Source of the DNA: an uncultured bacterium | GTDB taxonomy: Bacteria > Patescibacteriota > Minisyncoccia > Phycocordibacterales > Phycocordibacteraceae | Direction of reading: 5' to 3' | Assembly: GCA_963759775.1 (NCBI GenBank) | Contig: CAVXAH010000001.1 | Coordinates: forward strand, 528,682-592,681 | DNA length: 64,000 nucleotides | In this document: piece by piece, positions 2,991-27,392 of the stretch | Layout of the letters: each line of letters opens with the position of its first letter | Numbering within the stretch: the stretch's first letter is position 1 | Notes under the pieces: generated by a model | What the model was told of the DNA's origin: nothing | Databases searched by the model: none | Seen by the model: the letters and a program-made list of their open reading frames with translations, nothing else | Program-made: the position numbers and the translations under genes

Positions 2991-3222
2991 GTAGGTTTTT
3001 AAGCAAAACTGCTTCGTTTAGATAAAAACCAATTATGGGAACATGCATACCCTGAAAGATTTCAGGTTGTATTGCTTAGCTTTATCGTCTCGGCAAGACG
3101 AGTTTCACACAAAGTTTCCCATATGAGGGGATAGAGAGCTTCTTTGAAGGTCATTTGCACCCTTCAAATCCGGCAGGTTCTTCATCAATTCTTATCCTCC
3201 TTTTTTGTCGCAGAATCCTTGA

Positions 3223-3253
3223 GAAAACCCTTGTCTTTCAAGGGTTTTCTTTG
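3223..3253 (+). promoter_or_regulatory. terminator-like hairpin inside the 5' leader of the giant gene
   Basis: gaaaaccctt (3223-3232) pairs with aagggttttc (3240-3249) and is followed by tttg, 34 nt before GTG 3287. A second hairpin ttgaagg...ccttcaa lies about 60 nt further upstream. Confidence 0.35.
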
Positions 3254-3286
3254 AAACGGCGTAGTAGAATAACCTGTATACAAACT

Positions 3287-9200: not shown

Positions 9201-12200
9201 GCACTGATACCACGGGGGATTACGTTACTTCAATCACAGCAGGAAACGGGCTCGGGGGAACAGGGCTTACGGGAGAAGGGTCAACACCAACTCTTTCCGT
9301 AAATGTAGGAGACGGACTCCAGCTTTCTTCAGATGCCGTCAATTTTGCGCTTCACACGACTGGTCCAGGACTTCAGGCAGATGGCAATGGCCTCTCTCTT
9401 ATTCGTACCTGTGGGGACGGAGAGCTTTTGAAATACACCGCAGCTTCCGGTTGGACTTGTGGATCAGACGCGGGAGCAGGGTCTTCGCCATTTGCCACGG
9501 CAGGGGGGCTCATTACCAAATCAACAGCAAGCGATCGACTTGAATTGCAATACGGCACCCCAGGCGATATTCAGTTTAAAATTACAAATGTTACGGCAAG
9601 TAATGACAGTGCACCGACGGCCGACGCAATGCAGATACTCCTCACGGGAGATGCAGAGGCAGATGCTATTACCACGGGTGGTGTTGATGGACTTTACATT
9701 AACGCGCTCTTTGGTGCAGTGACAGGAGACAACGTCGCCTTACTCCATCTTGACCTTGATACCGCAACCACCTCCTCACCAAGCGGAACGTTTGATGCAA
9801 TACGTATTGATGCTATTCCGGGTTCGGGAGCACAGGAAACGGCAATTGAAATCGGTTCAGGATGGGACAACATTTTGGACACAGGAAGCGTGGACATCAC
9901 CGGAACAGGAAATATTTCCGGTGTAAATGACCTCACGGTGGTGGGTACCGTAAAACTTACGGGGGCAGCATATGCAAACTGTAAAGGCACTGCCGCAAAC
10001 CAAGGAGCGCTTACCGTTGCCGCAGATGGCACGGTGGAGTGTACGGCAGACGACGGTGGTACCGGTACTTCATGGTCGTCACTCACGAACCCAAGCGGAA
10101 ACCTTGCTCTTGTTCACAACGAAAACAAAACGACGTTTACCTGGGACACGGTAGACACAACCGTTTCACCTTTTGATGGCATCACGTTTGCCATCAATAA
10201 CGATGCATCTGTTGATGCTCAAACGCAACGCATCGTCGTCATTAAAAACAATCTCGTTTCCGCCGGAGGTACCATCGAACGTCTTTTGGTACTTGATAAC
10301 GCCGACGGCGGTACGGTACCAACGGCTCTTGAGATTGGCGGATTCGGCGCTATCACGACCGCGATTGATGTCTCCTCTTCAACTATCGGCACCGCAATCG
10401 CTTTTGGTGCAAACGATATTATAGGTACCAATTTCTCAGTCACGGGTGGAACAGGAAATGTTATTACCTCCGGAGATATTGCCGTAAACGGTGGAGATAT
10501 TACTTCAACCAGCGACCTTACTCTTGATGCTCAAGATGGAACACCAACGATTTTCATTGCTAGTGGCGACAATCTACAACTTCAGTCAACCGGAAACATC
10601 CTCCTTGGCACCGGTCGCTTAGACGTTGCGTCGGCAGGGAACTTGAATATTGGTATCACGACCGCAACGGCCGTTGTGATTGGAAACGGCTCAGGAGACT
10701 CTTCCGTACAACTGCCAAGTCAATCAGTAGGCTCAACAGAGATTGTGGACAATGCTATTGGTCAAGCCGACATAACGGACGACTCACTTGATTTTGCAGA
10801 CTTCCAGGACGCTCTTGATCTTGATGCAAACACAACACTACTCTCAACGCTCACCGGTATCGGTCTTGATTATGCACTTTCACCAACGGGCGCTGGTACC
10901 ACCACGGCGTGGGAGATTACCCCAACTATTGCGAGTGGTGTTTCTCAAGAACTTCGTGGCATTCACATAGATCCGGTAACGACAAACGGAAACGCAGGAG
11001 ACTTTATTCAGGGTATTTTGATAGACAATATTACGGGCACCGCTTCCGTTGATACCGGAATCCACATAGGTACGGGATGGGATACGGGCATCCTTGTTGA
11101 TGGCGGGGGAGTCACTATCTCCGCCGGCGCTCTCGCGGTGAACTCTGACTCCATTACCTCCGACGGCACACTACTTATAGACTCAAGCGGTATCGTACGA
11201 CTTGGTTCAAACGACAATCTTGAGCTCCAAGGGTCAGGAAATTTACTTATCGCAGGCGCGAGCGGACGACTTGATGTGAATTCTCTCGCAACGCTCAATA
11301 TTGGTACCACCAATGCGACGGCGGTTGTGATAGGAAATGGAGCAAATACGACGAGCGTTACTATCACCACCACAGCAGCAGGAAATACGGCGCTCGTGGT
11401 GCCAGACCAATCCATTGGAAACGCAGAAATTGCTCTTGATACACTTGACTACGCACAGTTTGACGACTCCCTTGATCTTGATGCAAACACGACGCTTGCC
11501 TTTGCGGGGTTCAACCTCACACATAACTTAAACTCCACGGGAGATTTTCTCATACAGGATGCGGGTACCATCTTCGCACAATTCCTCGATGACGGCACCA
11601 TCACTTTTGGAAAAGCTTCCGGAGCAGGAACGATTAATGTTGGCGTCGGAACCGCAATTGACACTATTAATATTGGTACCGACGCGACCGCAAGTGATGT
11701 GGTGCGGATTGGTTCGTCAAATGCTGACCTCGCACTCACGGACGCACAGTGGTCTATCACCACCTCGGGACTCATCACCACCGCAGATGATATTGCGGTA
11801 AATGGGGGAGACATCACCACAACCGCAAGCACAGGAAATATTTTCAACGCAAACGCGGCAACGGTAAATATTGCAGGGGCCGCGACACTTTTCAATCTTG
11901 CGGACTCAACGACGGTGAAAACAATAGACATTGGCGGTGTCACGGCAGACGGTACGGACACTATCAATATTGCAACCAACGGGACATCAAACAGCGACAC
12001 TGTCACTATCGGAAATTCAAATGGGGGAACCTCAGTCGCGATCACGGGAGGTGATGCGTGGGGCATCTCAGCTACAGGTGTACTCACTCTTTCTACCGAC
12101 GCGTCACCGACGACTGCCATTCTCGCCGTTGATAGCGGATATACCAACTTTGCTGATATTGCCGACAATCATATTATCGGTACAACGCCAAACCTAGACT

Positions 12201-15200
12201 TTACCAACTTTGATGTGGTCGGTTCAACCGGTTCGGTCATCATTGATAACGCAGGGAACACAGGTTCTTTAACAATAGAAGGAACAAACCTAGATATCAA
12301 CTCTCTTGATTTTGTCGGTGCTGGAGCATTCACGACCGGATCAAATGGAAATCTTACGCTGACGCCACATGGTTCAGGTGACGTCATTATCAGCGTTGAC
12401 GCAAACACAAACGTTCAGCTCACTGGCGGCGCAGATGGTGCAAATGCACTCACGGTTGCGGCGGGTGACGTGGTGTTTTCTGACGGCGACTTTACACTTC
12501 TCAGTGGCGACTTTGATGTAACGCTTGATAATGGTGACGGTGCTGGAATAACTTCCGGCTCTGCCGCAACAGCGGACCTTCTCACTCTCGCCGTGACTGG
12601 TGTTGGCTCTGACGGACTCCAAATTAATGCAACACAGCTAGATGATGCGGACGCGACCGATACAACGCGTGCACTGCAGATTTCTGTCACCTCAAATTCA
12701 GGAGACGCAGACACGGTGTATGGAATCACCATAGACAATCTCACGGGGGGCACCGCGAATGAAACTGCACTTTCTATTGGTACGGGTTGGGATACCGGCA
12801 TTATCGTTGGTTCTGGCGGGGTAACTATTTCCTCAGGCGCACTTGCGGTCAATTCAGGCTCTATCACTTCCTCTAGTGGTTCAGGTCTTACCATCAACCC
12901 GATTGATTTCCTGTATCTTGCCTCAGGAGACTCACTCCAGCTTCAGGGTTCGGGCAATTTCTTACTCGGCACGGGTCGTCTAGACACCTCAGCGGGAGCA
13001 ACCCTTAACATTGGTACGACAAACGCTACGGCGATTACGTTTGGCAACGCATCAACTGAGAATTTAATAGTTACGACAAATGGCACCGGTGACTCGGAAG
13101 TACAGCTTCCAACAGGCTCAATAGGTTCAGGAGAAATTGCAAACGGTTCCATTACGCAACTAGACATCGCCGACGACTCTCTTGATTGGGAAGACTTTAA
13201 AGATGCCATGACACTTGATGCGGCAAGCACCATCACCTCTTCCTCAATAAACGGAACATCGCTTTCGCTGAATGTGTCTCCGGACGGTTCCGCTGGTGCT
13301 CCCATTGCATTTCAGGTTACGCCTACCTGGGGTGTAGACACCACCGACCAAACATTTGTTGGTATCAATATTAATCCAAGTACCAATTCAAATACCGACA
13401 GTGGCGATACTCTTATTGGTCTTCAAATCGCGGGTGTGACCGGTACGGTTGGCACAGAAACGGCGCTTCTTATTGGAAGCGGTTGGGACACTTCTATAAG
13501 TGCGGCAGGGAAGGTGGATGTGGGAGGAATTATTGAAGCAGGTTCAAGCAATATTACACTCACTAACAGCACCGGTCAGATTGTTGCGGGCGCATACGCG
13601 AGCCAATCTATTGATGGCGACGACATTGCGGCGTCTATTGCCGGAAGCGGTCTCATTTTGAACACGGCAACGACGCCGGATCAAATTGACATTGATCTTA
13701 TCAACATCGCAGACGCAACGGGTGTCTCAAGTTCAAACTCAGGACTTGAGTTTGGTGGTACTGCAAATGAACAATTAGGACTCCTGCGTGGCTGTGGCGA
13801 CGGACAGCTCCTCAAATGGGTATCGGCCACCTCCGAATGGCAGTGTTCGACCGACGTTTCTGCGGGTACACCGGCATTGAACCAGATTTCTGCCGCACTC
13901 ACCGAAGGTACACCACAAGACTCAAACGAAAACACCGTTCGATGGAACTGGGACTTTACCGGAGGTGGCGCAGCGGATGACTCCGGACTTGTTATTTCAG
14001 AATCCACGGCCTCAACGGCGGGTGAGCAGGATAAGAAATCTTTGTTGGAGATTATTACGCTCGCGGGGTCGCTCGCTTCGCCACTTCAGGTGACCGCAGG
14101 CGGAACAGACGTGGGCGACATATGGTTTGACCTTCAAGGAACCGCTGATTTTGAAATCCGAGAAAACGGTCGCGCACTCGCACGCTTCAACGATGATGCA
14201 AGTATTTATCTTGGAGAAGCAACCACAACATCCTTGATTGATATTGGTGGATCAGCCTCAGACACTATATATATAGCAACCAGTACCGCCGCAGGGGATA
14301 CCGTGGTTATTGGCAACAACCACAGCGCTACCACACTCGTGCTTGATGCGGGTACCGGTGCAAGTGCGATTCAGCTTGGGAACAGTGCCACAGCACACGG
14401 TATTAAGATTGGCACGGGAGCAGCGGCACAAACGGTCACTCTTGGATCCCAAAACTCCACTTCCTCCACAACTATTCAGTCTGGGACCGGCGATCTGTTT
14501 GTGGTTTCAACAGATCAGCTCACGGTGGATGCTGTCGGCATCCTTGAGCTCAATTCCTCTGGTGGCGTAATCTCCATCGGAAACGACGCTGTTGCTCAAA
14601 ACATCAACATTGGAACTGGCGCTGCGGCAAGAACTATCACGGTCGGTAATGGTACTGGCGCCACTGGGTTACGACTTAACACGGGTACGGGTGGTCTCAT
14701 TGCAAACACCCTCACAGGAGGATTTATCTTTACTACCTCATCTACCACCGCACAGGCGATTAATATAGATGTAACAGGTACCGGTGGGGGAATAGATATT
14801 GATACGACCGACGGCGCCTTCTCCCTAACTACGGGCGGAGCAACGAACGGCGACATCAACTTCTTGGCAGGAGACGTGTTTGACATTGACTCTGTTGATT
14901 CACTTTCCCTTAACGCTTCAGCGGGAGTGATAAACATTGGTGATGACGTTGTTTCGCAGGCAATAAATATCGGTACCGGTGGCAGTCGCAGCATTCTCAT
15001 TGGTAATACGACGCCAAATACAGCAATCACTCTTAACTCAGGTGGAGCGGGGGACATTGCCGCAAACTCAGCAGCAACACTCACTTTGGATTCAGTAGGA
15101 GTTCTTGAACTCAATTCCTCGGGAGGAATAATTTCAATAGGAAATGATAACGTCAATCAAAATATCCGTATTGGCACCGCCGGCAACCGCACCATCACTC

Positions 15201-17350
15201 TTGGCGTCACTGGCGGCTCAACCGCACTAAGCCTTATTTCCGGCACGGGTGATATCACTCTCTCTTCCGATGACGATGTCACCATTAACGGAGCGGGAGC
15301 AACGGCAGTTATTGGCATTGGTACGGCATCGGTTGCCCAAACCATTAATATTGGAAATGTAACAGGAGCTACTCTGGTCAACATTGATGCGGGAACGGGC
15401 GGCATCACGCTGGATTCAACCGGTGTTGGCGATATTTTGCTCAATTCTTCGGACACGATTCTCATGGACTCCGCAAACGCGCTCTCCATCAACTCCTCTG
15501 GTGGAGTGATCTCCATCGGCAACAACGCCGTCAACCAAAACATCAACCTCGGCACCGCCGGCAACCGCACCATCACTCTTGGCGTCACTGGCGGCTCAAC
15601 CGGTCTCGCTCTTAACGCAGGTACGGGCAATATCGCACTCACTACCTCCTCAACCGGAGACATCACCCTCAACTCCACGGACACAGTGTTGATCGACTCT
15701 GCTGGTGTCTTGCAGCTCAACTCCTCTGGTGGAGTGATCTCCATCGGCAACAACGCCGTCAACCAAAACATCCAAATCGGCACCGCCGGCAACCGCACCA
15801 TCACTCTTGGCGTCACTGGCGGCTCAACCGGTCTCGCTCTTAACGCAGGTACGTCCGACATCACTCTTTCCTCAGACGACGACATCTCTATTAACGGGGG
15901 TGGAGCAAGTGCCGCCATTGACATTGGAACCATTGGAACCGCTCACACCATCACCCTCGGCAACTCCACGGGCGCCACCTCGCTCGCGCTTAACACCGGC
16001 ACCGGTCTTCTCACTGTCGGCGCAAACGCCATCGCCCACACCATCGTGATCGGCAACAAAACGGGCGACTCCTCAGTCCTCATTGATTCAGGGACCGGCA
16101 ACATTGATATTGGTACCTCAACGGCGAAGACTATTCGCGTGGGAAATGCGACAGGTGCAACAGCTCTGATACTTGCCGCAGGTACCGGCGATCTCGCCCT
16201 CACCTCAACCGACCTCCTCACTCTTGATTCCGCAAACGCGCTCTCTATCAACTCCTCCGCTGGCGTGATCTCCATCGGCAACAACGCCGTCAACCAAAAC
16301 ATCCAAATCGGCACCGCCGGCAACCGCACCATCACTCTTGGCGTCACTGGCGGCTCAACCGGTCTCGCTCTTAACGCAGGTACGTCCGACATCACTCTTT
16401 CCTCAGACGACGACATCTCTATTAACGGGGGTGGAGCAAGTGCCGCCATTGACATTGGAACCATTGGAACCGCTCACACCATCACCCTCGGCAACTCCAC
16501 GGGCGCCACCTCGCTCGCGCTTAACACCGGCACCGGTCTTCTCACTGTCGGCGCAAACGCCATCGCCCACACCATCGTGATCGGCAACAAAACGGGCGCC
16601 TCCTCAGTCCTCATTGATTCAGGGACCGGCAACATTGATATTGGTACCTCAACGGCGAAGACTATTCGCGTGGGAAATGCGACAGGTGCAACAGCTCTGA
16701 TACTTGCCGCAGGTACCGGCGATCTCGCCCTCACCTCAACCGACCTCCTCACTCTTGATTCCGCAAACGCGCTCTCTATCAACTCCTCCGCTGGCGTGAT
16801 CTCCATCGGCAACAACGCCGTCAACCAAAACATCCAAATCGGCACCGCCGGCAACCGCACCATCACTCTTGGCGTCACTGGCGGCTCAACCGGTCTCGCG
16901 TTGAATGCAGGATCAGGCAATGCTGTTGTTACGAGCGCAACCATAAACCTTGCCGCCAGCGCAAATCTCCAGATAAATGGAGCAAACGGTGCAACCGCGA
17001 GTTGTTCCGGAACACTCTCTTCAACCATTACTACCACAAAAGGAATGGTCACCACCCACGCATGTACTTCAGACCAGCGGCTGAAGTCGAATTTTGGTGA
17101 GTTTAGCAATGTCCTAAATCGAATACAAGATATTCGAGGTGGTACATTTTATTACAACGACCTGTATCGTCAGTTGAGCGGGGACACGGAGAATTTTGAC
17201 ATACACTCAGGCTTTTTAGCGCAAGAGGTTCAGAGAACTTTTCCTGAGCTTACAAAAAGTTCAAGTATCACGGAATTATTGCGTTCGCGGAAGATGGGGT
17301 TACGCCGCACACAATTGGATTATCCAAAATTGCTCGTGGCCATTGCCTAG
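3287..17350 (+). CDS. giant secreted Gly/Thr/Ser-rich repeat protein (~4,687 aa) with C-terminal tail-fibre/peptidase S74-like intramolecular chaperone domain
   Basis: The frame is uninterrupted for 14.06 kb. GTG 3287 gives [41 protein letters not shown]|AVG, a signal or anchor. It contains many internal repeat modules. The C-terminus reads SDQRLKSNF...[14 protein letters not shown]...[10 protein letters not shown]. The track start TTG 3155 was rejected (see notes). Confidence 0.85.
15488..16889 (+). repeat. in-frame tandem repeats inside the giant gene (228-nt older unit, then 531-nt unit x2.2 at near-identity)
   Basis: The unit starts atcaactcc at 15488, 16247 and 16778 (equivalent position 15716 in the first 531-nt copy, which begins ctcaactcc). 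Positions 15738-16246 and 16269-16777 differ at one base (a16068 vs c16599). 16778-16889 repeats the first 112 nt. Confidence 0.9.
17069..17347 (+). other. peptidase S74-like / intramolecular chaperone auto-processing domain (domain of the giant CDS)
   Basis: S-D-x-R-L-K-x-N, then GFLAQEV..FPEL, then DY.KL. These are the hallmark motifs of the endosialidase and tail-fibre C-terminal chaperone domain. Confidence 0.6.
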
Positions 17351-17692
17351 GCATCCAAGGAGACTCGAATGCAAAAAGTAAATACGCCACCCAAGTCCTC
17401 GACTCACCGCCTTGGTGTCGCATTGAATCTCGTCACATGCGCTTGGCTCTGTTCAGTCCCATATCTCCGCATTGAGTCAAAGGTAAATGCTCGAGCAACA
17501 GTTCACGACGAAAGGACTTACCGTGAACGGCGCGACGACACTCAATGGCACGGTCTCTTTTAAGGGGCAGTCTCTTTTGCAAAACAAGTAGAATTCCTCG
17601 TCGCACCGACCTTTAACAAAGACACGGGCGGATTTGCGGTTGTTCAAGAAGGAGACCAGGAAGTACGCATTTCATTCTCCGAGCCGTATGCC
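17351..17692 (+). pseudogene. frame-broken linker between the giant ORF and the 17564-18199 ORF
   Basis: There is no long ORF here, but protein-like pieces appear in several forward frames. One is LTVNGATTLNGTVSFKGQSLLQNK (17517-17588). It continues in another frame as VEFLVAPTFNKDTGGFAVVQEGDQEVRISF (from 17588). Confidence 0.4.
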
Positions 17693-18199
17693 GTGCAGCC
17701 AGTCGTAACAGCTTCTATGACCTTTGAGGAGGGCGACTTGGTGGCGAGCGCAGACGCCGATGTCCTTTTCGCCTCCGATATTCGCTACTTAGTGATGAAG
17801 AAAGATTCAACCGGCTTCACTATCCGCCTCAACAAAGCTGCTCCAAGAGACATTCGATTCTCCTGGGTTGCACTTGCTATTAAAGACGCAAACGTCTCGT
17901 GGAGCCTTCACGAAGGACTTTCTCCCGTCATACCTCCAGCAAACCCAACATCGCCACCAGCTCCAGAGCTGACCCCAGAACCCACACCAATAGATGAGCC
18001 AACACCTCCTCCCGCAGAAGAACCCGTCGCGACAAGTACGCCACCAATGAGCGAGCCCGAACCGGAACCCGCTCCAGAGCCTGCACCCGAACCAACTCCT
18101 GAACCTGAACCAACTCCTGAACCTGCGCCCGAGCCAGCACCGGAACAAACTCCAGAACCAACTCCAGAACCTGAGCCAGCTCCAGAGCCAGCGCCGTAA
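17693..18199 (+). CDS. C-terminal beta-domain plus Pro/Glu/Ala/Thr-rich tail; probably the displaced C-terminus of the giant protein
   Basis: The frame is open from 17564 and is the same phase as the giant ORF. ...GFTIRLNKAAPRDIRFSWVALAIKD is followed by about 80 aa of PEP/PAP/PTP repeats. There is no credible start or RBS of its own (GTG 17693 only). Confidence 0.5.
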   Translation: MQPVVTASMTFEEGDLVASADADVLFASDIRYLVMKKDSTGFTIRLNKAAPRDIRFSWVALAIKDANVSWSLHEGLSPVIPPANPTSPPAPELTPEPTPIDEPTPPPAEEPVATSTPPMSEPEPEPAPEPAPEPTPEPEPTPEPAPEPAPEQTPEPTPEPEPAPEPAP

Positions 18200-18205
18200 T
18201 CGCGT

Positions 18206-18547
18206 ATGAAATTAACTTCATTGCACGTCGCTTACACCGCAGGACTTATCGCGGCACTCGTCATCGTTGGTCTCGGATGGTTTTGGTTTTCTACTTCCCA
18301 TGAAGACGAGACCGCGCGCGTTGCGCGCGCGGTCGCAGAGCTCGCAATCGTCCCCGATGAGATTCCCATCATTACGACCGTTACTGACCCCACAAAACTC
18401 GCCGACACCCCACTCGCAGGCGAAGCAAAGGTGGGGGACAAGGTACTTTTCTACCAAAACGCCAAACGTCTGATCCTCTACCGTCCTTCCGAGAATCGCA
18501 TTGTTGATATTGTGCCTTTTAAAATTGGCGTAACGCCCTCGCCATGA
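18206..18547 (+). CDS. hypothetical N-terminally membrane-anchored protein
   Basis: 113 aa with a single TM (AYTAGLIAALVIVGLGWFWF). It starts 6 nt after the previous stop. I recognise no domain. Confidence 0.55.
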   Translation: MKLTSLHVAYTAGLIAALVIVGLGWFWFSTSHEDETARVARAVAELAIVPDEIPIITTVTDPTKLADTPLAGEAKVGDKVLFYQNAKRLILYRPSENRIVDIVPFKIGVTPSP

Positions 18548-18566
18548 CGTATCAGCATCTTTCCCC

Positions 18567-18593
18567 AATTAACGAGGTCCGACCTCGTTAATT
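18567..18593. repeat. REP-like palindrome, copy A (3' flank of RAYT gene)
   Basis: aattaacgaggtc-c-gacctcgttaatt has perfect 13-nt arms. The central base is inverted relative to copies B and C. Confidence 0.8.
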
Positions 18594-18597
18594 TACG

Positions 18598-19230
18598 CTA
18601 GTCTTCAATTTCTTTTTGGAGCCACTCAAAGCCTTCAAAATCTTTTCTATATTCTCTTGGTCCACCAAAAAAATCAAGAAAGAAACTTTTATTTACGAAA
18701 GGATACATATTAGTTCCGAGTACGTAATCACGGTAACTACTCCACGGATAATCCTCCAGTTTTTCTCCGCGCGCGAGTGCATCAATCGGGTTTTTATGGA
18801 TGTAGTGGGGGATATACATAAACTGCGCATCCCGCTCAATCAATACCGCTTTAAACTTTCCTTGGAAAAGAGGTCCCACGCGTTCGTTCTTCTTGTTGAA
18901 ATACATGGTGTACCCGGTACATACTTTTTGCATAAATTTAGAAATCCCACCCTCTTCTATTTGACGTAACAGTAAATGGAAATGATTCGACATTAGAGCG
19001 AAGGCCAAAATTTCTACAAGCTCTTTTTCATAACGAGGTCGGACCTCGTTAATTTCCTTATTGAGCAGATAAGTAGTGTTGTTCGCCGCGTTGGACGTAT
19101 TAAATGTCTCAAGCGAATTGACGAAACGAGCATACTCTTTCGGTGTTTGGAATATAAAACGTTTTTCAACTCCACGATTGAAAACATGATAGATTTCTCC
19201 CGCAACGAGCGAAGGTTTCTGCATATACAC
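18598..19230 (-). CDS. REP-associated tyrosine transposase (RAYT, IS200/Y1-like)
   Basis: 210 aa. The motifs are YHVFNRG, LMSNHFHLLL (HUH) and YIHKNP (catalytic Tyr helix). Confidence 0.75.
   Translation of the reverse strand: MYMQKPSLVAGEIYHVFNRGVEKRFIFQTPKEYARFVNSLETFNTSNAANNTTYLLNKEINEVRPRYEKELVEILAFALMSNHFHLLLRQIEEGGISKFMQKVCTGYTMYFNKKNERVGPLFQGKFKAVLIERDAQFMYIPHYIHKNPIDALARGEKLEDYPWSSYRDYVLGTNMYPFVNKSFFLDFFGGPREYRKDFEGFEWLQKEIED
19030..19053. repeat. REP-like palindrome, copy B (inside the RAYT coding sequence)
   Basis: ataacgaggtc-g-gacctcgttaat. On the coding strand it encodes ..INEVRPRYE.. in frame. Confidence 0.75.
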
Positions 19231-19235
19231 ATTCT

Positions 19236-19258
19236 ATAACGAGGTCGGACCTCGATAA
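19236..19258. repeat. REP-like palindrome, copy C (5' flank of RAYT gene)
   Basis: ataacgaggtc-g-gacctcgataa, located 6 nt upstream of the RAYT start codon. Confidence 0.75.
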
Positions 19259-19297
19259 AGGTTAGGGAAAGTGATGGTATGGTATTGAGAGCGGCGT

Positions 19298-20596
19298 ATG
19301 AGGCATTTCATTCTTATTTCAAGAGCATCGTTGCTCCTTTTCGGCATTCTTTTCTTTGGCGTACTGGCGCATGCGCAACAAGAAATGACCGGAACGAATT
19401 TTACGGTTTCAACGCCAGTTATCACGCAAGGCGGGGTTCGCTCCACCTCGGCAAGCTTTGAGCTCTATACCTCTCACGGCCAGCTCTCAAGTTCGGAGTC
19501 AACGAGCGCGAGTTTTATTGGTCGTGGCGGATTCCTCCATTTTCCCGTTGCCACAACACCCACTCTGTCAGCGACCGCGGGCGACCAACAAGTGATGCTT
19601 TCGTGGACCGCCTCGGTTGGTACGCTCGCGCGTATCAATGATTATCAAGTCGGTGTAGGAACGGTCTCTGGCGGACCTTATACCTTTCAGTCGGTAGGAG
19701 AAGTTCTCCTCTTCACTAAGAACGGCCTCACCAATGGAACGACGTATTATTTCGTGGTGCGCGGAATGGCGGGAACACTCGCTCTTTCAGAATCAAATCA
19801 GGTAAGCGCAACACCTTCTGGTGTAGCACCTCCTGGTGGTGGAGGCGGTGGTGGCGGAGGAGGAGGCGGTGGAGGTGGATCTGGCAGTATGAAAATTTCA
19901 GGTCTCGCGTCGCCCGGCGCATCCGTAACGCTTCTTAAAGATGGTTCAGTGGCCGCAACGACACCTGCCGACCCGAGCGCAAGTTGGTCAATTACGCTTA
20001 ATAATCTGAACGCGGGTATTTATTCTTTCAGCGCGTACGCCTCGGATACGACAGGACTCCAATCTTCTACGGTCAACTTTACGCAGTCCGTTACCTCTGA
20101 TGCTGAGACAGAGGTTACTAACATCTTTCTCTCTCCTACCATCGGCAAAAGCCACAAGCAGATTAAACAGGGTGAGACGATTACCTTCTTTGGTCTCACA
20201 GCGCCGCAGTCGGACGTCGCGCTCTTCGTTCACTCAGACCAGGAGTTTGTTGAGAAAATTAAAGCAGGAGTCAATGGTGCGTGGGTAAAAGCTTTTAACT
20301 CAGCATTCCTTGAGCTTGGCGACCACGCGGCACGGTCTCAAAGTTCGAAAACCAATCAGCTTTCAACCTACAGCCCCTCGGTTGCCTTCGTTGTGGGGAA
20401 CACTTCACTTCCAGAAGATGGTCTGTGCCGCCGCTCGGACCTTAACTGTGATGGAAAAGTAAACCTCACAGACTTCTCTATACTTCTTTTCTTTTGGGAC
20501 CAGACGAGCCCGGCGAACGCGCGCGCGGACATCAACATTTCCGGACGCGTTGATATTACTGACTTCTCTATACTCCTCTATGACTGGACCGGCTAA
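19298..20596 (+). CDS. secreted FN3 + Ig-like protein with C-terminal dockerin repeats
   Basis: Signal peptide MRHFILISRASLLLFGILFFGVLAHA|QQ. An FN3-like segment (LSATAGDQQVMLSW...TTYYFVV) is followed by a 14-Gly linker and two Ig-like segments. The C-terminus carries two dockerin repeats, DLNCDGKVNLTDFSILL and DINISGRVDITDFSILL. Confidence 0.7.
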   Translation: MRHFILISRASLLLFGILFFGVLAHAQQEMTGTNFTVSTPVITQGGVRSTSASFELYTSHGQLSSSESTSASFIGRGGFLHFPVATTPTLSATAGDQQVMLSWTASVGTLARINDYQVGVGTVSGGPYTFQSVGEVLLFTKNGLTNGTTYYFVVRGMAGTLALSESNQVSATPSGVAPPGGGGGGGGGGGGGGGSGSMKISGLASPGASVTLLKDGSVAATTPADPSASWSITLNNLNAGIYSFSAYASDTTGLQSSTVNFTQSVTSDAETEVTNIFLSPTIGKSHKQIKQGETITFFGLTAPQSDVALFVHSDQEFVEKIKAGVNGAWVKAFNSAFLELGDHAARSQSSKTNQLSTYSPSVAFVVGNTSLPEDGLCRRSDLNCDGKVNLTDFSILLFFWDQTSPANARADINISGRVDITDFSILLYDWTG

Positions 20597-21698
20597 AAAT
20601 CTGCTCAAAAAATCCATCGGCATTTTCCTTGCCGTATTCTTTGCGCCGCATATGGTATCTGCGGCGACGCTGATTGGCGTTTCTTCTGTGTCGGCTATTG
20701 AAAAGGGAGAAACCGTTCCTATAGAGTGGTATCTGGACACAGAAGGAGACACTATTAATGCAGTTGAGCTCGGGCTTGTATTTTCTGCAGAGACTCTTGA
20801 CTTGACCGCGGAGCCAGGTCGCTCGCTGATTTCACTTTGGGTGAAAAGCCCCTCAGCAAACAACGAACTCGGACTCGTGACTTTGGTCGGAGGCGCACCG
20901 GGTGGACTCACGGGCGTGGTGCCGCTTTTCCGGACAAACGCAACGGGAGTTGTGGAGGGTCCCGCCGTGTTTGCGCTCACGCCCGACTCTCGAGTGTATT
21001 TGCACGACGGGAGCGGCACCGAAAAAGAGGTTGTGCTTCCACAGTTCCAACTATCGGTTGTTCCCGCACAAAAGCCCACCATTATTTCAAAGACGCACCC
21101 AGACCAAAACGCTTGGTATCAAAAGACGAACGTAGAACTTGCGTTCCCGTATGATCCGACGAAGAAGTACGGCTACACCTTTACAAATGATTTCAATAGT
21201 TTCCCCGGAGATGTGCCGCAGGAAACTATGGGCACGGTCTCGTATAAAAATATTTTTGATGGTGTCTACTATTTCCGACTCTCCGAAAGAGCCGCAGAGG
21301 GAACCGTACAAGATAAGGGAGTGTATCGCGTCCAAATTGACCGCACGCCACCCGAATCCTTCACACCACTTATTGCAACCAGCACCGACCTCTACGACGG
21401 AGAGTCCTTTCTTTCGTGGAGTACGGTTGATAAGACTTCCGGCATCGCATATTACCGCGTGCGGACCGGGTTCTTTGGCTTTTGGCGAGATGCCACCTCG
21501 CCACAAAAGCTTTCACGACCTCTCGTAGGGGACACGGTTCGCGTCCGAGCGTATGACACGGCGGGAAATTATTTTGATGCGTTCGCTCCTTTCCCTGGAT
21601 ATGTGAGTGTCCCGATCTTCTATACACTTATTGGTCTTCTTGGAGCACTCCTTGCCCTGTGTGGGGTGTATAGTCGTAGGAAAGACGTTCATTCATGA
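20580..21698 (+). CDS. membrane-anchored cohesin-like domain protein (paralog 1)
   Basis: ATG 20580 gives the signal MTGPAKNLLKKSIGIFLAVFFAPHMVSA|A and overlaps the upstream stop by 17 nt. The N-terminus is a cohesin-like beta-domain. A shared THPDQNAWY...YRVQIDRTPPE module follows. There is a C-terminal TM. Confidence 0.55.
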   Translation: MTGPAKNLLKKSIGIFLAVFFAPHMVSAATLIGVSSVSAIEKGETVPIEWYLDTEGDTINAVELGLVFSAETLDLTAEPGRSLISLWVKSPSANNELGLVTLVGGAPGGLTGVVPLFRTNATGVVEGPAVFALTPDSRVYLHDGSGTEKEVVLPQFQLSVVPAQKPTIISKTHPDQNAWYQKTNVELAFPYDPTKKYGYTFTNDFNSFPGDVPQETMGTVSYKNIFDGVYYFRLSERAAEGTVQDKGVYRVQIDRTPPESFTPLIATSTDLYDGESFLSWSTVDKTSGIAYYRVRTGFFGFWRDATSPQKLSRPLVGDTVRVRAYDTAGNYFDAFAPFPGYVSVPIFYTLIGLLGALLALCGVYSRRKDVHS

Positions 21699-23092
21699 AT
21701 ACATACCGTTTTTCGGTCTCTACCTTTTCTGCTTCGCTTTTTGCGCTAGGCCTCCTCTCGTTCCCTGGTCTCACCTTCGCTGCTGATATATATGTATCTC
21801 CCGCGACCGGTACGTACGCCGTCGGGTCTACTTTTACCGTAACGCTCCGGATGAATACGGCAGGGCAGGCGGTCAACACCGGAGAAATAACGGCTTCGTA
21901 TTCCACCGGCACACTTGAGCTTGTAGGATCCGCACAAGGATCTACTTTTTCGCTTGCTGCGCCAGGGTCACCGCGCCGAGGATCGGGCAGCGTATATTTT
22001 GGAGGCGGCATTCCGAGTCCGGGCTACACGGGTAGTTCGGGTTCGCTCGGCACACTTACGTTTAGAGTGAAGTCAGCAGGAACAGGAACCGTCTCACTTT
22101 CAAGTGGTAAGGCACTTCTGAATGATGGGTTTGGGACCGACGCATTTAAACAAGCATCAGGGGGTACGTTCACCCTGGTCTCTTCTGCCGCCCCAACACC
22201 ATTTAGTGCGCCGCAAGTCTCTTCTCCAACGCACCCAAACCAAAATAGCTGGTACGCCACTTCCTCCCCCGTCTTTACCTGGACACTCCCTGCGGGTGCG
22301 GACATGGTGAGCTTTGAGTTTGATCAGAAGAACAACACCGTTCCCGATACGAGTCCGGACCAATCGGGAGGGAACGCAACACTTTACACAGAGATTGAAG
22401 ATGGTGTCTGGTATTTCCACATCAGAGCGCGCGTAGGAGGGGTGTATGGCGCAACGACCCACTATCGCGCTCAAATAGACACCACGCCACCTGAAAAGTT
22501 CGCTCTCGGTGTCTCAACTGACCTCGCAGGCATCCCTACCATAAGCTTCGCCACGACGGACGCCCTTTCGGGTATACACCACTATGAGCTTGCGGTAGAC
22601 AATCTCACTATTGATAAAAGTGCGACCTCCTCAATTACTATTTCCAAAATAACCCGCGGGCGTCACACGCTCTCCGTGATAGCATACGACCATGCAGGAA
22701 ACGCCGAAGAAGCACAGGCGGTAGTTTCTGTAACAAAGACCTTTATGATATCCCTCAACATCATCATCTGGCTCATCATCTTCAACATCATCATAACGAT
22801 CCTCCTCCTCATCATCCTCTGGCTTGAAATACAAGAGCGCAGACGAGAGGGGCCGATAAGTGAACGCGTGAAGCGCGCAAAGAGAGATATTGACGAGAGC
22901 CTCAGCAGGCTTCGCATCCAAGCGCAGACTCGCTTGAGCACCATGTCTGATGTTCCGGCAAAAGACATTGTCTCAAAAGAAAAGATACTTGAAGATGAGA
23001 TGGCAGGAATTCTGCTTGAAGCAAAATCCCATATTGATAAAACCATCAATGACTTGGGAGAAATTCCTGAAAGGGGAGACGAAAGTAAGTAA
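21695..23092 (+). CDS. membrane-anchored cohesin-like domain protein (paralog 2)
   Basis: ATGA overlap with paralog 1. It has a signal peptide and the cohesin-like segment GSTFTVTLRMNTAGQAVNTGEITASY...LTFRVKSAGTGTV. It then carries THPNQNSWY...YRAQIDTTPPE, a TM and a charged coiled tail. Confidence 0.55.
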   Translation: MNTYRFSVSTFSASLFALGLLSFPGLTFAADIYVSPATGTYAVGSTFTVTLRMNTAGQAVNTGEITASYSTGTLELVGSAQGSTFSLAAPGSPRRGSGSVYFGGGIPSPGYTGSSGSLGTLTFRVKSAGTGTVSLSSGKALLNDGFGTDAFKQASGGTFTLVSSAAPTPFSAPQVSSPTHPNQNSWYATSSPVFTWTLPAGADMVSFEFDQKNNTVPDTSPDQSGGNATLYTEIEDGVWYFHIRARVGGVYGATTHYRAQIDTTPPEKFALGVSTDLAGIPTISFATTDALSGIHHYELAVDNLTIDKSATSSITISKITRGRHTLSVIAYDHAGNAEEAQAVVSVTKTFMISLNIIIWLIIFNIIITILLLIILWLEIQERRREGPISERVKRAKRDIDESLSRLRIQAQTRLSTMSDVPAKDIVSKEKILEDEMAGILLEAKSHIDKTINDLGEIPERGDESK

Positions 23093-23106: not shown

Positions 23107-23346
23107 TCAAAAGAGACGCTTCCGTGCAAAGGCAAATCCTGAACCGCGCTTTAGATATTTTTCGAAAGCGAGTGCTTTCGCCCTGCTTCTGAAGGCGGCA
23201 TAAAATTCAAGTTGCGGTGCCTGATATTTCTCCGTGGTTTTCACGTTTTTCGCTTGGTGAGCACCAAGTCTTGCTCGAAGATTCTCGCTGAACCCAACAT
23301 AGGTTCGATTGGTCGAATGATCTCGGAGAATATATACGTAATACAT
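23107..23346 (-). CDS. GIY-YIG nuclease family protein (small, stand-alone)
   Basis: MYYVYILRDHSTNRTYVGFSENLRARLGAH (GIY...YVG...R..H). I chose the internal ATG 23346 over the track start 23421. Confidence 0.7.
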   Translation of the reverse strand: MYYVYILRDHSTNRTYVGFSENLRARLGAHQAKNVKTTEKYQAPQLEFYAAFRSRAKALAFEKYLKRGSGFAFARKRLF

Positions 23347-23488
23347 TTCAAAAATATAAGCCCTACTACGCTTCTTAAGAAAGAAGCTTCGAAGGGCACT
23401 ACTTCGTATAGCAAAAACCACCCGATGTGATAATCAAGTGGTTTGTGCCGTGCACTTCGAAGCACTGAGTCTTCGAGGTGCGAAGTAG

Positions 23489-23926
23489 TGGAGGCGGGGA
23501 GAGTCGAACTCCCGTCCGAATCTGACGATGAAAGCGCTTCTACGACGCGTAGTTTTGATTAAGGTTTAGGAAAGGGTGTGAGAACCAAAACGAAACCACT
23601 CCTTTCCGATCCCGAAGCCCGTCACACTTATGCAGTGTGGCGGGCGAATTTAAGTAAGTCGGATGGGCGTCCGGCTACCGTACTCACAGATAATTCCGCC
23701 TCTCTCTGCGCTGTGAGCGCCGTGAAGAAAAAGACGTCGCTTAGGCGAAGAAGCCGTGAGGCTTACGCGTAAGCGAACGCAAAATCCTTCATACCGAAGT
23801 ATGGGGACTTTACGCTTGCAAGAGTGTTCTTTGCAAGTATGTTGCTCAATCGGATTTAGGTGGCAGATGAGCGTGCACCGCGTCGCGCGTTTTTCAAAGT
23901 ACAGACCGTCAAAGCCGGTCACCCCC
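23489..23926 (-). ncRNA. ssrA: tmRNA (SsrA), one-piece
   Basis: 5' GGGGGTGACCGGCTTTGACGG. 3' GGGAGTTCGACTCTCCCCGCCTCCA gives a T-arm plus an acceptor with G3.U70. The internal frame ends ...KDFAFAYA-TAA inside a hairpin. It is adjacent to smpB. CCA is not encoded. Confidence 0.85.
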
Positions 23927-23974: not shown

Positions 23975-24418
23975 TTAATGGTTCTTCAAGGCGCGCTCCG
24001 CTTCGCGCGTCGCGTCTTTTTTCTTCAAGTCTTCGCGGCGGTCAGTTTTGTTCTTCCCGCGCGCGATCATGAGTTTTACCTTGAGAAGTCCACGTATATT
24101 ATACACCTCAATTGGCACTATTGTCAATCCCTTTTTGGACTCCGCATCAGCCAAAACAGCGATTTCTTTCTTGGTGAGAAGGAGGCGGCGCGTGCGCTCA
24201 TGGTCGTAGTCTTTTTGGGTATTTGCACTCTGGTAGGGAGGAATCGTCATACCCACTACAAACGCCTCACCGCCGCGCACAATAACGCGCGCGCCATCTA
24301 ACTTTCCGTTTCCAGCGCGAAGTGACTTCACTTCGCTCCCCACAAGCTCCATACCGGCGGTAAAGGTTTCAAGCGGTGCGAAGCGAAGAAATGCTTTTTT
24401 ATTCTCTATAAGCGACAT
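23975..24418 (-). CDS. smpB: SsrA-binding protein SmpB
   Basis: 147 aa. The sequence ...GSEVKSLR...ARGK..DKR... is typical SmpB. It lies next to the tmRNA gene. Confidence 0.9.
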   Translation of the reverse strand: MSLIENKKAFLRFAPLETFTAGMELVGSEVKSLRAGNGKLDGARVIVRGGEAFVVGMTIPPYQSANTQKDYDHERTRRLLLTKKEIAVLADAESKKGLTIVPIEVYNIRGLLKVKLMIARGKNKTDRREDLKKKDATREAERALKNH

Positions 24419-24474
24419 GACGAGAGTATACCTTGCGATACACCATACCTTATATATGGTATATTTCCTCGGCT

Positions 24475-26424
24475 ATGGCACCTCCGCCGATTTCTAAAAA
24501 ACCGAAACAGAAAAAGGGACTCCCGGGAAGCGGGCGTGGTCCGAAGTTACCGGGCTTTGGTGGCTCGTCATTCATTGGAAATCTCATCACCACCGTCATT
24601 ATTTTCCTCCTTTTGATGAGTGCATACTCGCTCGTCACTGACCTCACGAAGAATGTAGAAGAAATAGCGCTTTCACAGGTGGCAAGCGATGTTGCGGCGG
24701 AAAAGGTTGTAAGCATCACCGTAAGCGGGGAAACGTTGAAGCTCACGTATGCTGATGAGTCGGAACGCGTGTCGCGCAAAGACCCATCTGCGGGCCTTCC
24801 AGAAACCCTTGCGACCTACGGCGTTACTCCCGAACAGCTCGCAAAAGTTTCTTTCACCATTGAAGGCCAGTCGGGCTTCACGTTCTGGTTTCTCCAGCTC
24901 GCACCGATTCTTCTCCCGCTCTTTTTCATAGGGTTCCTCTTCTGGTTCCTTACGCGCCAGGTGAAGGGGGCAGGGATGCAGGCTTTCACTTTTGGCCAAT
25001 CAAAGGCGCGCATGATTGACCCGGCAGATACGAGTCAGCGTGTGACGTTTGCGGATGTTGCAGGCGCACGCGAAGCAAAAGAGGAGTTGGTTGAGATTGT
25101 AGACTTTCTCAAAAACCCAAAGAAGTTTCTAGACATAGGTGCGCGTATTCCGAAAGGAATTATTCTTATGGGGGCGCCAGGAACCGGAAAGACTTTGCTT
25201 GCGCGAGCGGTTGCCGGAGAAGCAGGCGTACCATTTTTCTCCATCTCTGGCTCCGAATTTGTGGAGATGTTTGTCGGTGTAGGCGCATCGCGTGTTCGGG
25301 ATCTTTTCCAGCTCGCCAAAAAAAGTGCACCAGCGATTATTTTCGTAGATGAAATTGATGCCGTGGGACGCGTGAGAGGATCGGGAGTTGGGGGTGGGAA
25401 CGACGAGCGCGAACAAACCCTGAACCAAATCCTTGTTGAGATGGACGGTTTTGAACCCACCGAGAAAGTGATCGTTATGGCGGCAACAAACCGTCCTGAC
25501 GTGCTTGACCCAGCACTTCTTCGCCCGGGTCGCTTTGACCGCCGGGTAACTATTGATCTTCCAGACCGCAAAGACCGCAATGAGATTTTGGGAATTCATG
25601 CGCGCAAGAAACCGCTCGGTCCCGACGTGAAGCTTGAGGTTATTGCCGAGCGTACGCCAGGCTTCTCCGGTGCCGAGCTCTACTCTCTTATGAACGAAGC
25701 GGCCATTCTTGCCGCCCGCGAAGACAGAAAAGAGGTTACGCAATACGACCTTGTTCGCTCAATTGAGAAAGTGATGCTTGGCCCGGAGCGCAAAAGCCAC
25801 TTGCTCTCCAAAAAAGAGAAAGAGCTCACTGCGTATCATGAGGCGGGTCACGCGCTTGTCTCGTCGGTACTTCCAAATGCCGATCCCGTGCACAAAATTT
25901 CAATCATTAGTCGTGGGCGGGCGGCGGGCTACACGCTCAAACTCCCGTTTGAAGATAAAAAGATGCAGTCCCGCAAGCAATTTTTGGACGACATCGCAGC
26001 AACACTTGGCGGCTATGTGGCTGAAGAGATGATTTTTGGAGACGTAACGACCGGGCCTTCAAACGACCTTGCGGTTATCACAGCGCTTGCGCGCGATATG
26101 GTCTCTAGGTACGGCATGTCTGAAAAGTTGGGGCCAATTGCCTTTGGCGAGAGGGAGCTTGGGCGTGAGCCGTATTCTGATGCCGTTGCGGCGAAGATAG
26201 ATGCCGAGGTAGCGCGCATCATTGATGAAGCCAAAAAGCGCGCCCACGACGTGCTTGTTGAGCACCGCAAAACGCTTGATGCTATTGCGAAAGAGCTTGT
26301 TGAAAAGGAGACTGTAGAACGCACCGATTTTGAAAAGATATTGATTGCAAACGGCATTGTGCCAAAAAAGAGGGAGGAAGAGGGAATTGTCATTGCTCCA
26401 GGGAGCGCGGGTGGGAAGATTTAG
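24475..26424 (+). CDS. ftsH: ATP-dependent zinc metalloprotease FtsH
   Basis: Walker A GPPGTGKT-like ([11 protein letters not shown]), the SRH region, the HEAGHA zinc motif, and two N-terminal TMs. I chose ATG 24475 over the track TTG 24433. Confidence 0.9.
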
Positions 26425-27234: not shown

Positions 27235-27307
27235 GCGCCTATAGCTCAATGGTTAGAGCACCAAGCTTATACCTTGGCGGTTCCACGTTCGAGTCGTGGT
27301 AGGCGCA
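27235..27307 (+). tRNA. tRNA-Ile (anticodon TAT)
   Basis: Perfect cloverleaf with acceptor GCGCCTA/TAGGCGC, anticodon stem CCAAG/CTTGG, loop C-T-TAT-A-C and T-arm CCACG-TTCGAGT-CGTGG. Confidence 0.85.
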
Positions 27308-27392
27308 CTTGCGGAGCAAGTGCGAGCCGTAGCGCGACGGCGCGAGGCGGGGTCGCAAGCGTTTTCAGCAGAAAACGACTGGTGACCACAGG
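27305..27392 (+). repeat. structured ~75-nt repeat, copy 1 (directly 3' of tRNA-Ile)
   Basis: H1 is GCACTTGC-gga-GCAAGTGC. The core is AGCGCGACGGCGCGAGGCGG (27331-27350). H3 is CGTTTTC-agca-GAAAACG (27360-27377). Confidence 0.7.

Follow-up and report, generated by a model that had tools for sequence, protein, structure and literature searches.

A conserved dockerin gene and its paired cohesin-like membrane paralogs: a putative surface-anchoring module of Patescibacteria

What would a dockerin-bearing protein and two membrane-anchored, cohesin-like paralogs be doing side by side in an ultra-small member of the Patescibacteria, in a setting with no cellulolytic context? We examined such a trio of genes (g1, g2 and g3) in a 64,000-nucleotide stretch of DNA from an uncultured bacterium of the family Phycocordibacteraceae (GCA_963759775.1, contig CAVXAH010000001.1, positions 528,682 to 592,681), referred to here as the window. 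We consider it fairly probable that the trio serves the Patescibacteria envelope as a cohesin-dockerin anchoring module of non-cellulosomal type, in which the membrane cohesin pair stays constant and the dockerin cargo varies. Its conserved role is probably to anchor proteins at the cell surface and not to degrade cellulose. The three genes are:

19298–20596, + strand: g1, secreted dockerin-bearing adaptor, 432 amino acids
20580–21698, + strand: g2, membrane-anchored paralog with a short cytoplasmic tail, 372 amino acids from ATG
21695–23092, + strand: g3, membrane-anchored paralog with a long cytoplasmic tail, 465 amino acids

The list of open reading frames (ORFs) places the three overlapping genes in one direction and bears out the 17-nucleotide and ATGA overlaps described in an earlier note, which had been made from the sequence alone. 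The overlap of 17 nucleotides between g1 and g2 follows from the ATG start of g2, for which an identical 372-amino-acid product is recorded in NCBI/ENA; an alternative TTG start at 20550 gives the longest ORF. The start of g3 overlaps the end of g2 by ATGA. Predicted promoters and terminators occurred in numbers equal to those in shuffled sequence, giving no signal for operon boundaries, and the base composition of the locus region was uniform with the rest of the window.

The product of g1 consists of a signal peptide, a conserved N-terminal motif, an FN3 domain, a G15 linker, two Ig domains and a C-terminal dockerin (pLDDT is the predicted local distance difference test score of the AlphaFold model):

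19298–19375, + strand: signal peptide, residues 1–26, ending ...AHA/QQ, read from the sequence; a hydrophobic segment, with a helix at 2–23 in the model
19379–19549, + strand: conserved N-terminal motif, residues 28–84, NF..PVI..GG.STS.SF.L.SS.GQ..G.STS..F...GFLYFP
19550–19822, + strand: FN3 domain, residues 85–175, Pfam fn3 E 1.3e−3, below threshold
19835–19879, + strand: G15 linker, residues 180–194, disordered in the model
19883–20401, + strand: two Ig-like domains, residues 196–266 and 269–368, Pfam Big_6 (26.2 bits) and Big_13, pLDDT 83–96
20423–20593, + strand: dockerin, residues 376–432, with two calcium loops, Pfam Dockerin_1 and a three-helix model

The earlier note had recognised the signal peptide, the FN3-like domain and the two Ig-like segments, all of which are present in the sequence or the model, and had counted the glycine run as G14; it is in fact a run of 15 (residues 180–194), and a glycine run is kept at this position across the family. 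Hydrophobic-segment analysis found the signal peptide only and no anchor belonging to g1 itself, and the dockerin is the only plausible device by which this secreted protein is retained.

The dockerin was recognised by Pfam Dockerin_1 (PF00404) at residues 380–426 with 26.5 bits against a curated threshold of 22.9 (E = 7.6e−6), and most of the g1 homologues listed carry the same domain. The duplicated calcium-binding motif which the earlier note had placed at the C-terminus of g1 is thus a dockerin, with both loops present: DLNCDGKVNLTD at residue 381 and DINISGRVDITD at residue 411, at a spacing of 30 residues. They form tandem EF-hand-like loops (ligands at positions 1, 3, 5, 9 and 12), each followed by a helix, and the helices were modelled at residues 390–398, 408–410 and 420–431 with pLDDT 82–93. 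The same note would have given up its reading if the repeats lacked the calcium-ligand pattern on alignment, and across 116 aligned homologues the pattern holds: in repeat 1, D1 was found in 115, N3 in 111, D5 in 113, N9 in 113 and D12 in 116; in repeat 2, N3 was found in 104, D5 in 96, D or N at position 9 in 97 and D12 in 116. Across the family the two repeats hardly differ (VNLVDFSI.AY against VDLVDFSIMAY). When all six frames were searched, the only D-x-N-x-[DS]-G loops in the window were the two of g1.

Cysteines flank the first calcium loop (window 20423–20450, g1 residues 376–384). C376 is kept in ~60% of homologues, and a cysteine stands at loop position 4 in 54/116 homologues or at position 6 in 31/116, a pattern which suggests a possible disulfide clasp where the dockerin begins.

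The AlphaFold model of g1 (mean pLDDT 77, from a 26-sequence alignment) contains the FN3 domain at 90–171 and the Ig domains at 196–265 and 270–367. The FN3 strands were modelled with pLDDT 80–91 and matched the Fn3-like structure 3mpc in the PDB; the Pfam scores for Big_6 and fn3 both fell just below their own thresholds. Residues 28–84 are among the best-conserved stretches of the family sequence, and residues 23–80 have pLDDT <50, with no confident fold modelled for them alone; this combination is typical of a segment which may fold only against a partner. Sequence matches of g1 in the PDB were mostly to Gly-Ser linkers of single-chain variable fragment constructs and were discarded as artefacts of the G15 run. 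Foldseek matches to the g1 model were dominated by tandem FN3/Ig structures, and were uninformative for the dockerin and the N-terminal motif.

The products of g2 and g3 share one build, in which a signal peptide is followed by a cohesin, an FN3-like domain, an Ig domain and a C-terminal transmembrane helix:

g2, residues 1–28: signal peptide
20664–21059, + strand: g2 predicted divergent cohesin, residues ~29–160
21081–21341, + strand: g2 FN3-like THPDQN module, residues 168–254
21342–21593, + strand: g2 Ig domain, residues 255–338
21597–21665, + strand: g2 transmembrane helix, residues 340–362, followed by a 10-amino-acid tail
g3, residues 1–29: signal peptide
21782–22183, + strand: g3 cohesin, residues 30–163
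22208–22480, + strand: g3 FN3-like THPNQN module, residues 172–262
22481–22735, + strand: g3 Ig domain, residues 263–347
22739–22825, + strand: g3 transmembrane helix, residues ~349–377
22826–23089, + strand: g3 helical cytoplasmic tail, residues 378–465

They are 30% identical over 350 amino acids, N-terminal domain included (BLASTP E = 1e−25). Both contain the THP(D/N)QN..WY module and the C-terminal transmembrane helix that the earlier note had described as common to them, and the Ig domain is shared too. Both are type-I membrane proteins with a stalk of three beta-sandwiches, and because the stalk ends in the C-terminal transmembrane helix the cohesin is at its membrane-distal tip.

The cohesin assignment is direct for g3. 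Pfam Cohesin (PF00963) matched residues 40–140 with 32.1 bits against a threshold of 24.1, and 41 of 65 members of the g3 family individually matched it at E ≤ 1e−3. The AlphaFold model of g3 (pLDDT 89.7, from a 65-sequence alignment) reached pLDDT 94–98 over residues 30–162 and was made up of the cohesin (30–162), an FN3-like sandwich carrying THPNQN..WY (174–261), an Ig domain (272–346) and a long helix (354–453) which comprises the transmembrane segment and the cytoplasmic tail. In the model the cohesin part is a nine-stranded flattened beta-sandwich of jelly-roll type, and cohesins led its single-domain Foldseek matches in the PDB: 2xdh (TM score 0.79, root-mean-square deviation 2.6 Å, 22% identity), 1g1k (0.77), 2vn5 (0.73–0.75) and 5n5p (0.74), with 4dh2 also among the best (target-normalised TM score 0.67–0.70). 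The top match overall was 2w1n, the cohesin plus FN3 module of Clostridium perfringens GH84C (E = 5.6e−11). By sequence, g3 alone found nothing in the PDB and the g3-family profile found a weak cohesin match only (4ums, E = 0.004). The Ig domain of g3 matched an NCBIfam OmpL47-type domain at 282–343 (35.7 bits, just below the 40-bit cut-off), and the sequence of its cytoplasmic tail is poorly conserved.

The N-terminal domain of g2 is a predicted divergent cohesin homologue whose own sequence fails the profile test; we call it so because of its BLASTP similarity to g3 and because the g2 orthologue family aligned to the g3 family in hhalign with 100% probability (E = 5e−57). Motifs such as LLNDGxGT are conserved in both cohesin families. 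The earlier note had read both N-terminal domains as cohesin-like and would have abandoned its reading if they matched no cohesin profile and no confident interface with the dockerin was predicted; for g3 the reading stands by both Pfam and fold, whereas for g2 it stands by profile-profile homology and not by Pfam.

Is this arrangement peculiar to one genome? We found more than 887 database matches to g1, most of them 430–450 amino acids long, 40–50% identical and aligned over their full length. An exhaustive search at E ≤ 1e−30 gave 742 fifty-percent clusters, some multi-FN3 giants being counted in, and a scan of one genome per species showed that at least 566 species of Patescibacteria encode a g1 relative. 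The homologues carry names which include Doudnabacteria, Magasanikbacteria, Uhrbacteria and Paceibacterota (placeholder titles in the species collection, such as ‘uncultured Gammaproteobacteria’ or ‘uncultured Saccharibacteria’, were set aside for taxonomy), and NCBI calls some of them ‘dockerin type I domain-containing protein’ or ‘cohesin domain-containing protein’. Relatives of ~600 amino acids have an extra inserted domain and not a different enzymatic head, and are uninformative on the diversity of cargo.

We searched 80 related loci (fetched loci are given L-numbers) with hidden Markov models (HMMs) built here; genes in these loci were called by longest-ORF heuristics, and counts of downstream genes refer to the 73 loci in which the sequence beyond the g1 homologue reached 2.5 kb or more. 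A cohesin-like membrane ORF lay directly downstream of the g1 homologue on the same strand in 73/73, with at least two paralogs in 71/73 and at least three in 16/73. Paralogs in the first position had a median length of 302 amino acids and a median cytoplasmic tail of 14 (C-terminal transmembrane helix in 79/82), and those in the second position a median length of 470 and a median tail of 83 (helix in 65/67); g2 and g3 fit this pattern of short tail first and long tail second. Searching from the cohesin side, we found a gene with the g1 dockerin subtype immediately upstream of the paralog set in 8/8 loci. The earlier note had proposed to check the conservation of the triad in relatives; in every locus examined, from either side, a dockerin gene and cohesin-like paralogs were adjacent without exception. 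That note had also described the system as self-contained, which has to be revised, as the trio forms the core, at the 3′ end, of a larger locus that is itself conserved, with the order large surface protein (here a giant fibre protein), small transmembrane protein (F2), dockerin protein and two to four cohesin paralogs.

One metagenome-assembled genome (MAG) holds two complete copies of the locus (CAYZGX010000018.1, L024, and CAYZGX010000008.1, L044), each with a large protein, F2, g1 and two cohesin paralogs, and the system can thus be duplicated within one genome.

The gene ahead of the cohesin paralogs usually encodes a g1-type adaptor, but other carriers of the dockerin occur. L004, L005 and L088 have a protein with Ig and dockerin only at this place, and L089 has another, unlike protein of 503 amino acids. 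In L087 (141–6674) a 2177-amino-acid MG2 (alpha-2-macroglobulin-like) repeat protein ends in the g1 dockerin subtype (E = 1.7e−18), the order at its C-terminus being a Pro/Glu-rich region, poly-Gly and the dockerin, and the short and long cohesin paralogs follow directly. This fusion offers a natural domain-fusion argument that large surface proteins may be held via the cohesin pair. The anchor-plus-cargo logic put forward in the earlier note gains comparative support in this way, from an invariant adjacency in which the cargo varies and the pair stays (L087, L088, L089, L004, L005).

Two of these loci hold further features. In L005 the functions of g1 are split between a protein with the N-terminal motif and the Ig plus dockerin protein, and a 2838-amino-acid SpvB/RHS/TcdB-type toxin-like protein (11392–19908) lies directly downstream of the cohesin paralogs. 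In L049, on a 797-kb contig, a second set is found ~5 kb downstream of the main locus (16091–20356), consisting of a cohesin-like protein and then two proteins with the g1 dockerin subtype, one of which also has an FN3-like/Ig module.

The dockerin and cohesin-like modules could be independent of one another, the dockerin being a stabilising element that binds calcium, or a glycan-binding one, and the cohesin-like domains generic beta-sandwich adhesin or carbohydrate-binding domains, clustered only as co-regulated envelope or adhesion proteins. Dockerin-like and cohesin-like modules with an unknown partner are reportedly common outside cellulosomes, and g2 does fail Pfam Cohesin. Glycans have also been put forward, as speculation, as the target of an essential Saccharibacterium dockerin-domain protein (Wang et al. 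2023, PMC10633639). We nevertheless consider independence unlikely, given the adjacency in every locus examined, from either search side and even where proteins of quite another kind carry the dockerin (L087, L089), the strong conservation of motifs in both cohesin families and a co-variation which is specific to the dockerin and cohesin domains.

This co-variation came from an exploratory mirror-tree analysis of 65 trios (one per locus; Spearman correlations). Divergence of the dockerin correlated with that of the second-position cohesin at 0.52, and at 0.47–0.53 when FN3, the proximal Ig or the first cohesin was controlled for, compared with 0.25 for the FN3 domain of g1 itself and 0.12 for the proximal Ig of the second paralog. 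Because the dockerin co-varies more with the second-position cohesin, g3 is the preferred candidate partner; the signal points, weakly, to g3 and not g2 as the main one.

We propose, as the more likely mechanism and on sequence and model evidence, a putative calcium-dependent docking of g1 onto the stalks, chiefly that of g3. The g1 dockerin would plug into the cohesin of the membrane stalks, with the long-tail paralog preferred, and this would hold g1 at the cell surface, on the outer face of the envelope. From there the Ig-Ig stalk, the flexible G15 hinge and the FN3 domain of g1 would present the conserved N-terminal motif to the outside. The anchor pair would be constant and the dockerin cargo would differ between lineages, the cargo here being an adaptor. 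More tentatively, the head of g1 may engage F2 or the giant Peptidase_S74 fibre encoded alongside, in which case the whole locus would build and hold a long surface fibre for contact with host cells; we regard this last step as possible but doubtful.

Several findings weigh against this proposal. On the dockerin side, repeat 2 of g1 has Ser and not Asp at position 5, as in 16/116 homologues (g1 and 15 others), and R or K occupies position 1 of repeat 2 in 28/116. On the cohesin side, g2 is without any Pfam match at E ≤ 1, and only 8/69 of its orthologues match Pfam Cohesin (E ≤ 0.01). The dockerin signal with the first-position cohesin is weak (0.28), that with the second falls to a partial correlation of 0.25 when the Ig domains of g1 are controlled for, and shared rate variation without contact can give mirror-tree correlations. 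With one dockerin per two to four cohesins, the stoichiometry is opposite to that usual in display. The giant-fibre link has synteny behind it and nothing else; covariation of F2 and of the fibre C-terminus with g1 domains was weak (≤ 0.38) and was treated as no evidence.

It should be asked whether the locus is instead a minimal cellulosome, a scaffold for polysaccharide-degrading enzymes, as cohesin and dockerin genes expressed in situ in a Candidatus Shapirobacterales MAG have been interpreted (Bell et al. 2022, PMC9123182). The sole dockerin in the 64-kb window is on the non-enzymatic FN3/Ig protein g1. No dockerin-bearing hydrolase or other enzyme was found in the window, where the remaining ORFs are housekeeping genes and one glycosyltransferase without a dockerin. 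In ~1.2 Mb of related loci only two further ORFs matched the g1 dockerin subtype, both of them in L049. Each anchor has a single cohesin and is thus not a multi-cohesin scaffoldin. We consider a cellulosome very improbable, and the locus was not classed as one.

The region upstream of the trio contains the other members of the larger locus and some insertions:

3155–17350, + strand: giant surface fibre gene, 4731 amino acids from TTG, with an N-terminal signal/anchor sequence and a conserved N-terminal domain
17567–18199, + strand: remnant or displaced fibre C-terminus with a GRPYF...FSWIALAVKD type domain and a Pro/Glu-rich tail; callable ORF 17693–18199
18206–18547, + strand: F2, small single-pass membrane protein of 113 amino acids with an N-terminal hydrophobic segment
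18598–19230, − strand: IS200-like (Y1_Tnp) transposase between F2 and g1, Pfam Y1_Tnp 32.3 bits against a threshold of 23

The giant gene had been placed about 1 kb from the trio in the earlier note; it ends 1,947 nucleotides upstream of g1, and the fibre C-terminal remnant, the small membrane-protein gene and the transposase (− strand) lie between them. The C-terminus of the giant protein is a Peptidase_S74 (PF13884) intramolecular-chaperone domain (42 bits against a threshold of 22) which has the SDQRLK motif of the Ser-Lys dyad and groups by sequence with the family of self-cleaving trimeric fibres. The N-terminal domain of the giant protein shares 55–68% identity with large proteins encoded ahead of the g1 homologue in L010, L011, L028 and L030. 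A protein of at least 700 amino acids was encoded on the same strand within four genes upstream of g1 in 53/65 loci, many of these large proteins being truncated at the 10-kb flank limit. Searching with the giant N-terminal domain gave matches that were almost all contig-end fragments, because assemblies break inside these genes, and synteny could not be scored from the fibre side. An F2 member (~137 amino acids) was found between the large protein and g1 in 42 fetched loci, and the F2 of the window matched an HMM built from 44 locus members (E = 6.5e−31).

Just after the signal sequence of the giant protein, residues ~85–240 (window 3400–3900; QGRLLDSxGNLLGG..GTN.CFRF..YD..TVG...K.WP.GTP) are 55–78% identical in 80 database clusters that come from many Patescibacteria, which is far above the rest of the fibre.

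The remnant is in the reading frame of the giant gene, behind two stops (TAG 17348–17350 and TAA 17564–17566), with no start codon between 17567 and 17692. The TAG falls inside the region which aligns to the last S74-domain helix of relatives, and homologues of the remnant form the C-terminal part of large upstream proteins in 29 related loci. Judged from these alignments, the remnant seems to be an older 3′ end of the fibre gene, displaced or in decay, behind a newer S74 cassette. The transposase was inserted between F2 and g1 and is not part of the system; the insertion is absent from this position in the closest relative (L001/L007, 63–70% identical). Small IS200-like (Y1_Tnp) and GIY-YIG genes recur at or inside the loci of many species, as in the window (18598–19230 and 23107–23421, both on the − strand) and in L025, L031, L039, L041, L047 and L062, the GIY-YIG genes often lying between the g1 homologue and the first paralog, which suggests that small mobile genes often insert here.

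The presence of a large protein upstream in 53/65 loci also bears on a different use of the same parts. Instead of a display scaffold, the three proteins might form a fixed g1:g2:g3 basal complex in which the near-symmetric dockerin binds both cohesins, one per face, and clamps the short-tailed and long-tailed paralogs into a heterodimer, as the envelope-spanning base of the adjacent giant fibre, the cytoplasmic helix of g3 coupling it to the interior. Such a complex would suit the conservation of short-tailed and long-tailed paralog lineages as a pair, the single dockerin per locus, the almost identical dockerin repeats and the helical g3 tail of ~90 amino acids. It fits less well with the dockerin co-varying clearly with only one of the two cohesins, with the three or more paralogs of 16/73 loci and with the poorly conserved sequence of the cytoplasmic tail; nor, to our knowledge, is binding of two cohesins at once an established mode for type I dockerins. 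We regard the basal complex as rather unlikely. The proposal that the trio is the envelope-spanning socket of a Patescibacteria-wide fibre apparatus, with the symmetric dockerin bridging short- and long-tailed cohesins and the adaptor N-terminal motif holding a giant host-contact fibre, is speculative and in our view improbable. We therefore retain the non-cellulosomal anchoring module as the preferred reading.

Downstream of the trio, the window continues with:

23486–23926, − strand: tmRNA gene
23975–24418, − strand: ORF at the place where the syntenic locus L001 has its Pfam-annotated SmpB gene
24433–26424: ORF with an FtsH-type AAA-protease sequence, in the position of the L001 FtsH gene

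RecG, malic enzyme, RNase P RNA, MurJ, FtsZ and FtsA are found further out, and the region is ordinary chromosomal DNA of a small-genome bacterium. A predicted tRNA-Ile with anticodon TAT (UAU) lies at 27235–27308; most bacteria decode AUA with a lysidine-modified CAU tRNA.

This setting decides against a prophage or tail-like module, which might otherwise be suspected from a Peptidase_S74 domain of the kind typical of phage tail spikes, from faint Ig_J matches and from the transposase and GIY-YIG genes nearby. The locus lies on the chromosome, in the 63–70% identical relative it shares synteny with SmpB, tmRNA, FtsH and RecG, it is present in at least 566 species, and its composition is unremarkable. 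A scan against PHROGs found no match for g1, g2, g3, F2 or the fibre C-terminus. On the empty scan and the core-gene synteny we rejected this reading, which we hold to be extremely improbable.

Non-cellulosomal cohesin-dockerin pairs are established in kind, in toxin complexes of C. perfringens, in Archaeoglobus fulgidus and in ScaE-CttA of Ruminococcus flavefaciens. The putative pairing described here is like that of Clostridium thermocellum OlpA/OlpC (4dh2, Coh-OlpC/Doc435), in which a cell-anchored single type-I cohesin captures a secreted dockerin protein. Here, by contrast, anchoring is by a C-terminal transmembrane helix behind FN3-like and Ig domains instead of by SLH repeats; the putative partner is an FN3/Ig adaptor and no enzyme, the anchors are a conserved paralog pair and there is no cellulolytic context. 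In R. flavefaciens a non-enzymatic adhesion protein, the X-dockerin adhesin CttA, is held on the wall-anchored single cohesin of ScaE, and the trio resembles this system in combining a non-enzymatic protein with an anchored single cohesin. However, ScaE is sortase-anchored and CttA binds cellulose, whereas the trio is without a visible X-module or sortase signal. The GH84 toxin complexes of C. perfringens (NagJ 2w1n; cohesin-like 2jh2) are also non-cellulosomal and have a cohesin followed directly by FN3, as in g2 and g3, but the modules there are on secreted glycoside hydrolases and join enzymes, and here they are on membrane stalks and an adaptor. The A. fulgidus cohesin 2xdh is the best single-domain structural match and comes from a non-cellulolytic organism; we know of no description there of a conserved operon of a dockerin adaptor with paired membrane anchors.

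Within the candidate phyla radiation (CPR), Southlakia epibionticum cannot grow as an epibiont without its dockerin-domain protein SEML1_0315 (Wang et al. 2023, PMC10633639). This protein is like g1 in being a CPR envelope protein with a dockerin domain, and unlike g1 in being monocistronic and 927 amino acids long, with a different architecture and no adjacent cohesin genes. Neither this paper nor that on the Shapirobacterales MAG (PMC9123182) describes the present operon, and we found no description of it in the full-text literature, searched mainly for dockerin with CPR, DPANN or episymbiont terms. The paired stalks anchored by transmembrane helices and tipped with cohesins, with a dedicated dockerin adaptor, the Patescibacteria-wide conservation and the link with a giant surface protein were not found described elsewhere.

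Much of bacterial diversity belongs to the Patescibacteria (CPR), which are thought to be attached to host cells, and almost nothing is known of how their surface structures are built and anchored, apart from type IV pili. The locus is useful in this respect as it is found in hundreds of species, combines two domains with well-understood binding chemistry and is small enough for expression in E. coli. It offers a directly testable handle: whether the dockerin binds a cohesin, which cohesin it binds and what the head of the adaptor holds. It also gives a caution that cohesin and dockerin annotations in CPR genomes should not be taken as evidence of cellulosomes, as has been done (PMC9123182). 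If the giant-fibre link is real, it would explain how fibres of multiple thousand residues are fixed without sortase signals or SLH anchors on these proteins, and if the socket proposal is true, it would be the first functional role for cohesin-dockerin pairing in episymbiont attachment.

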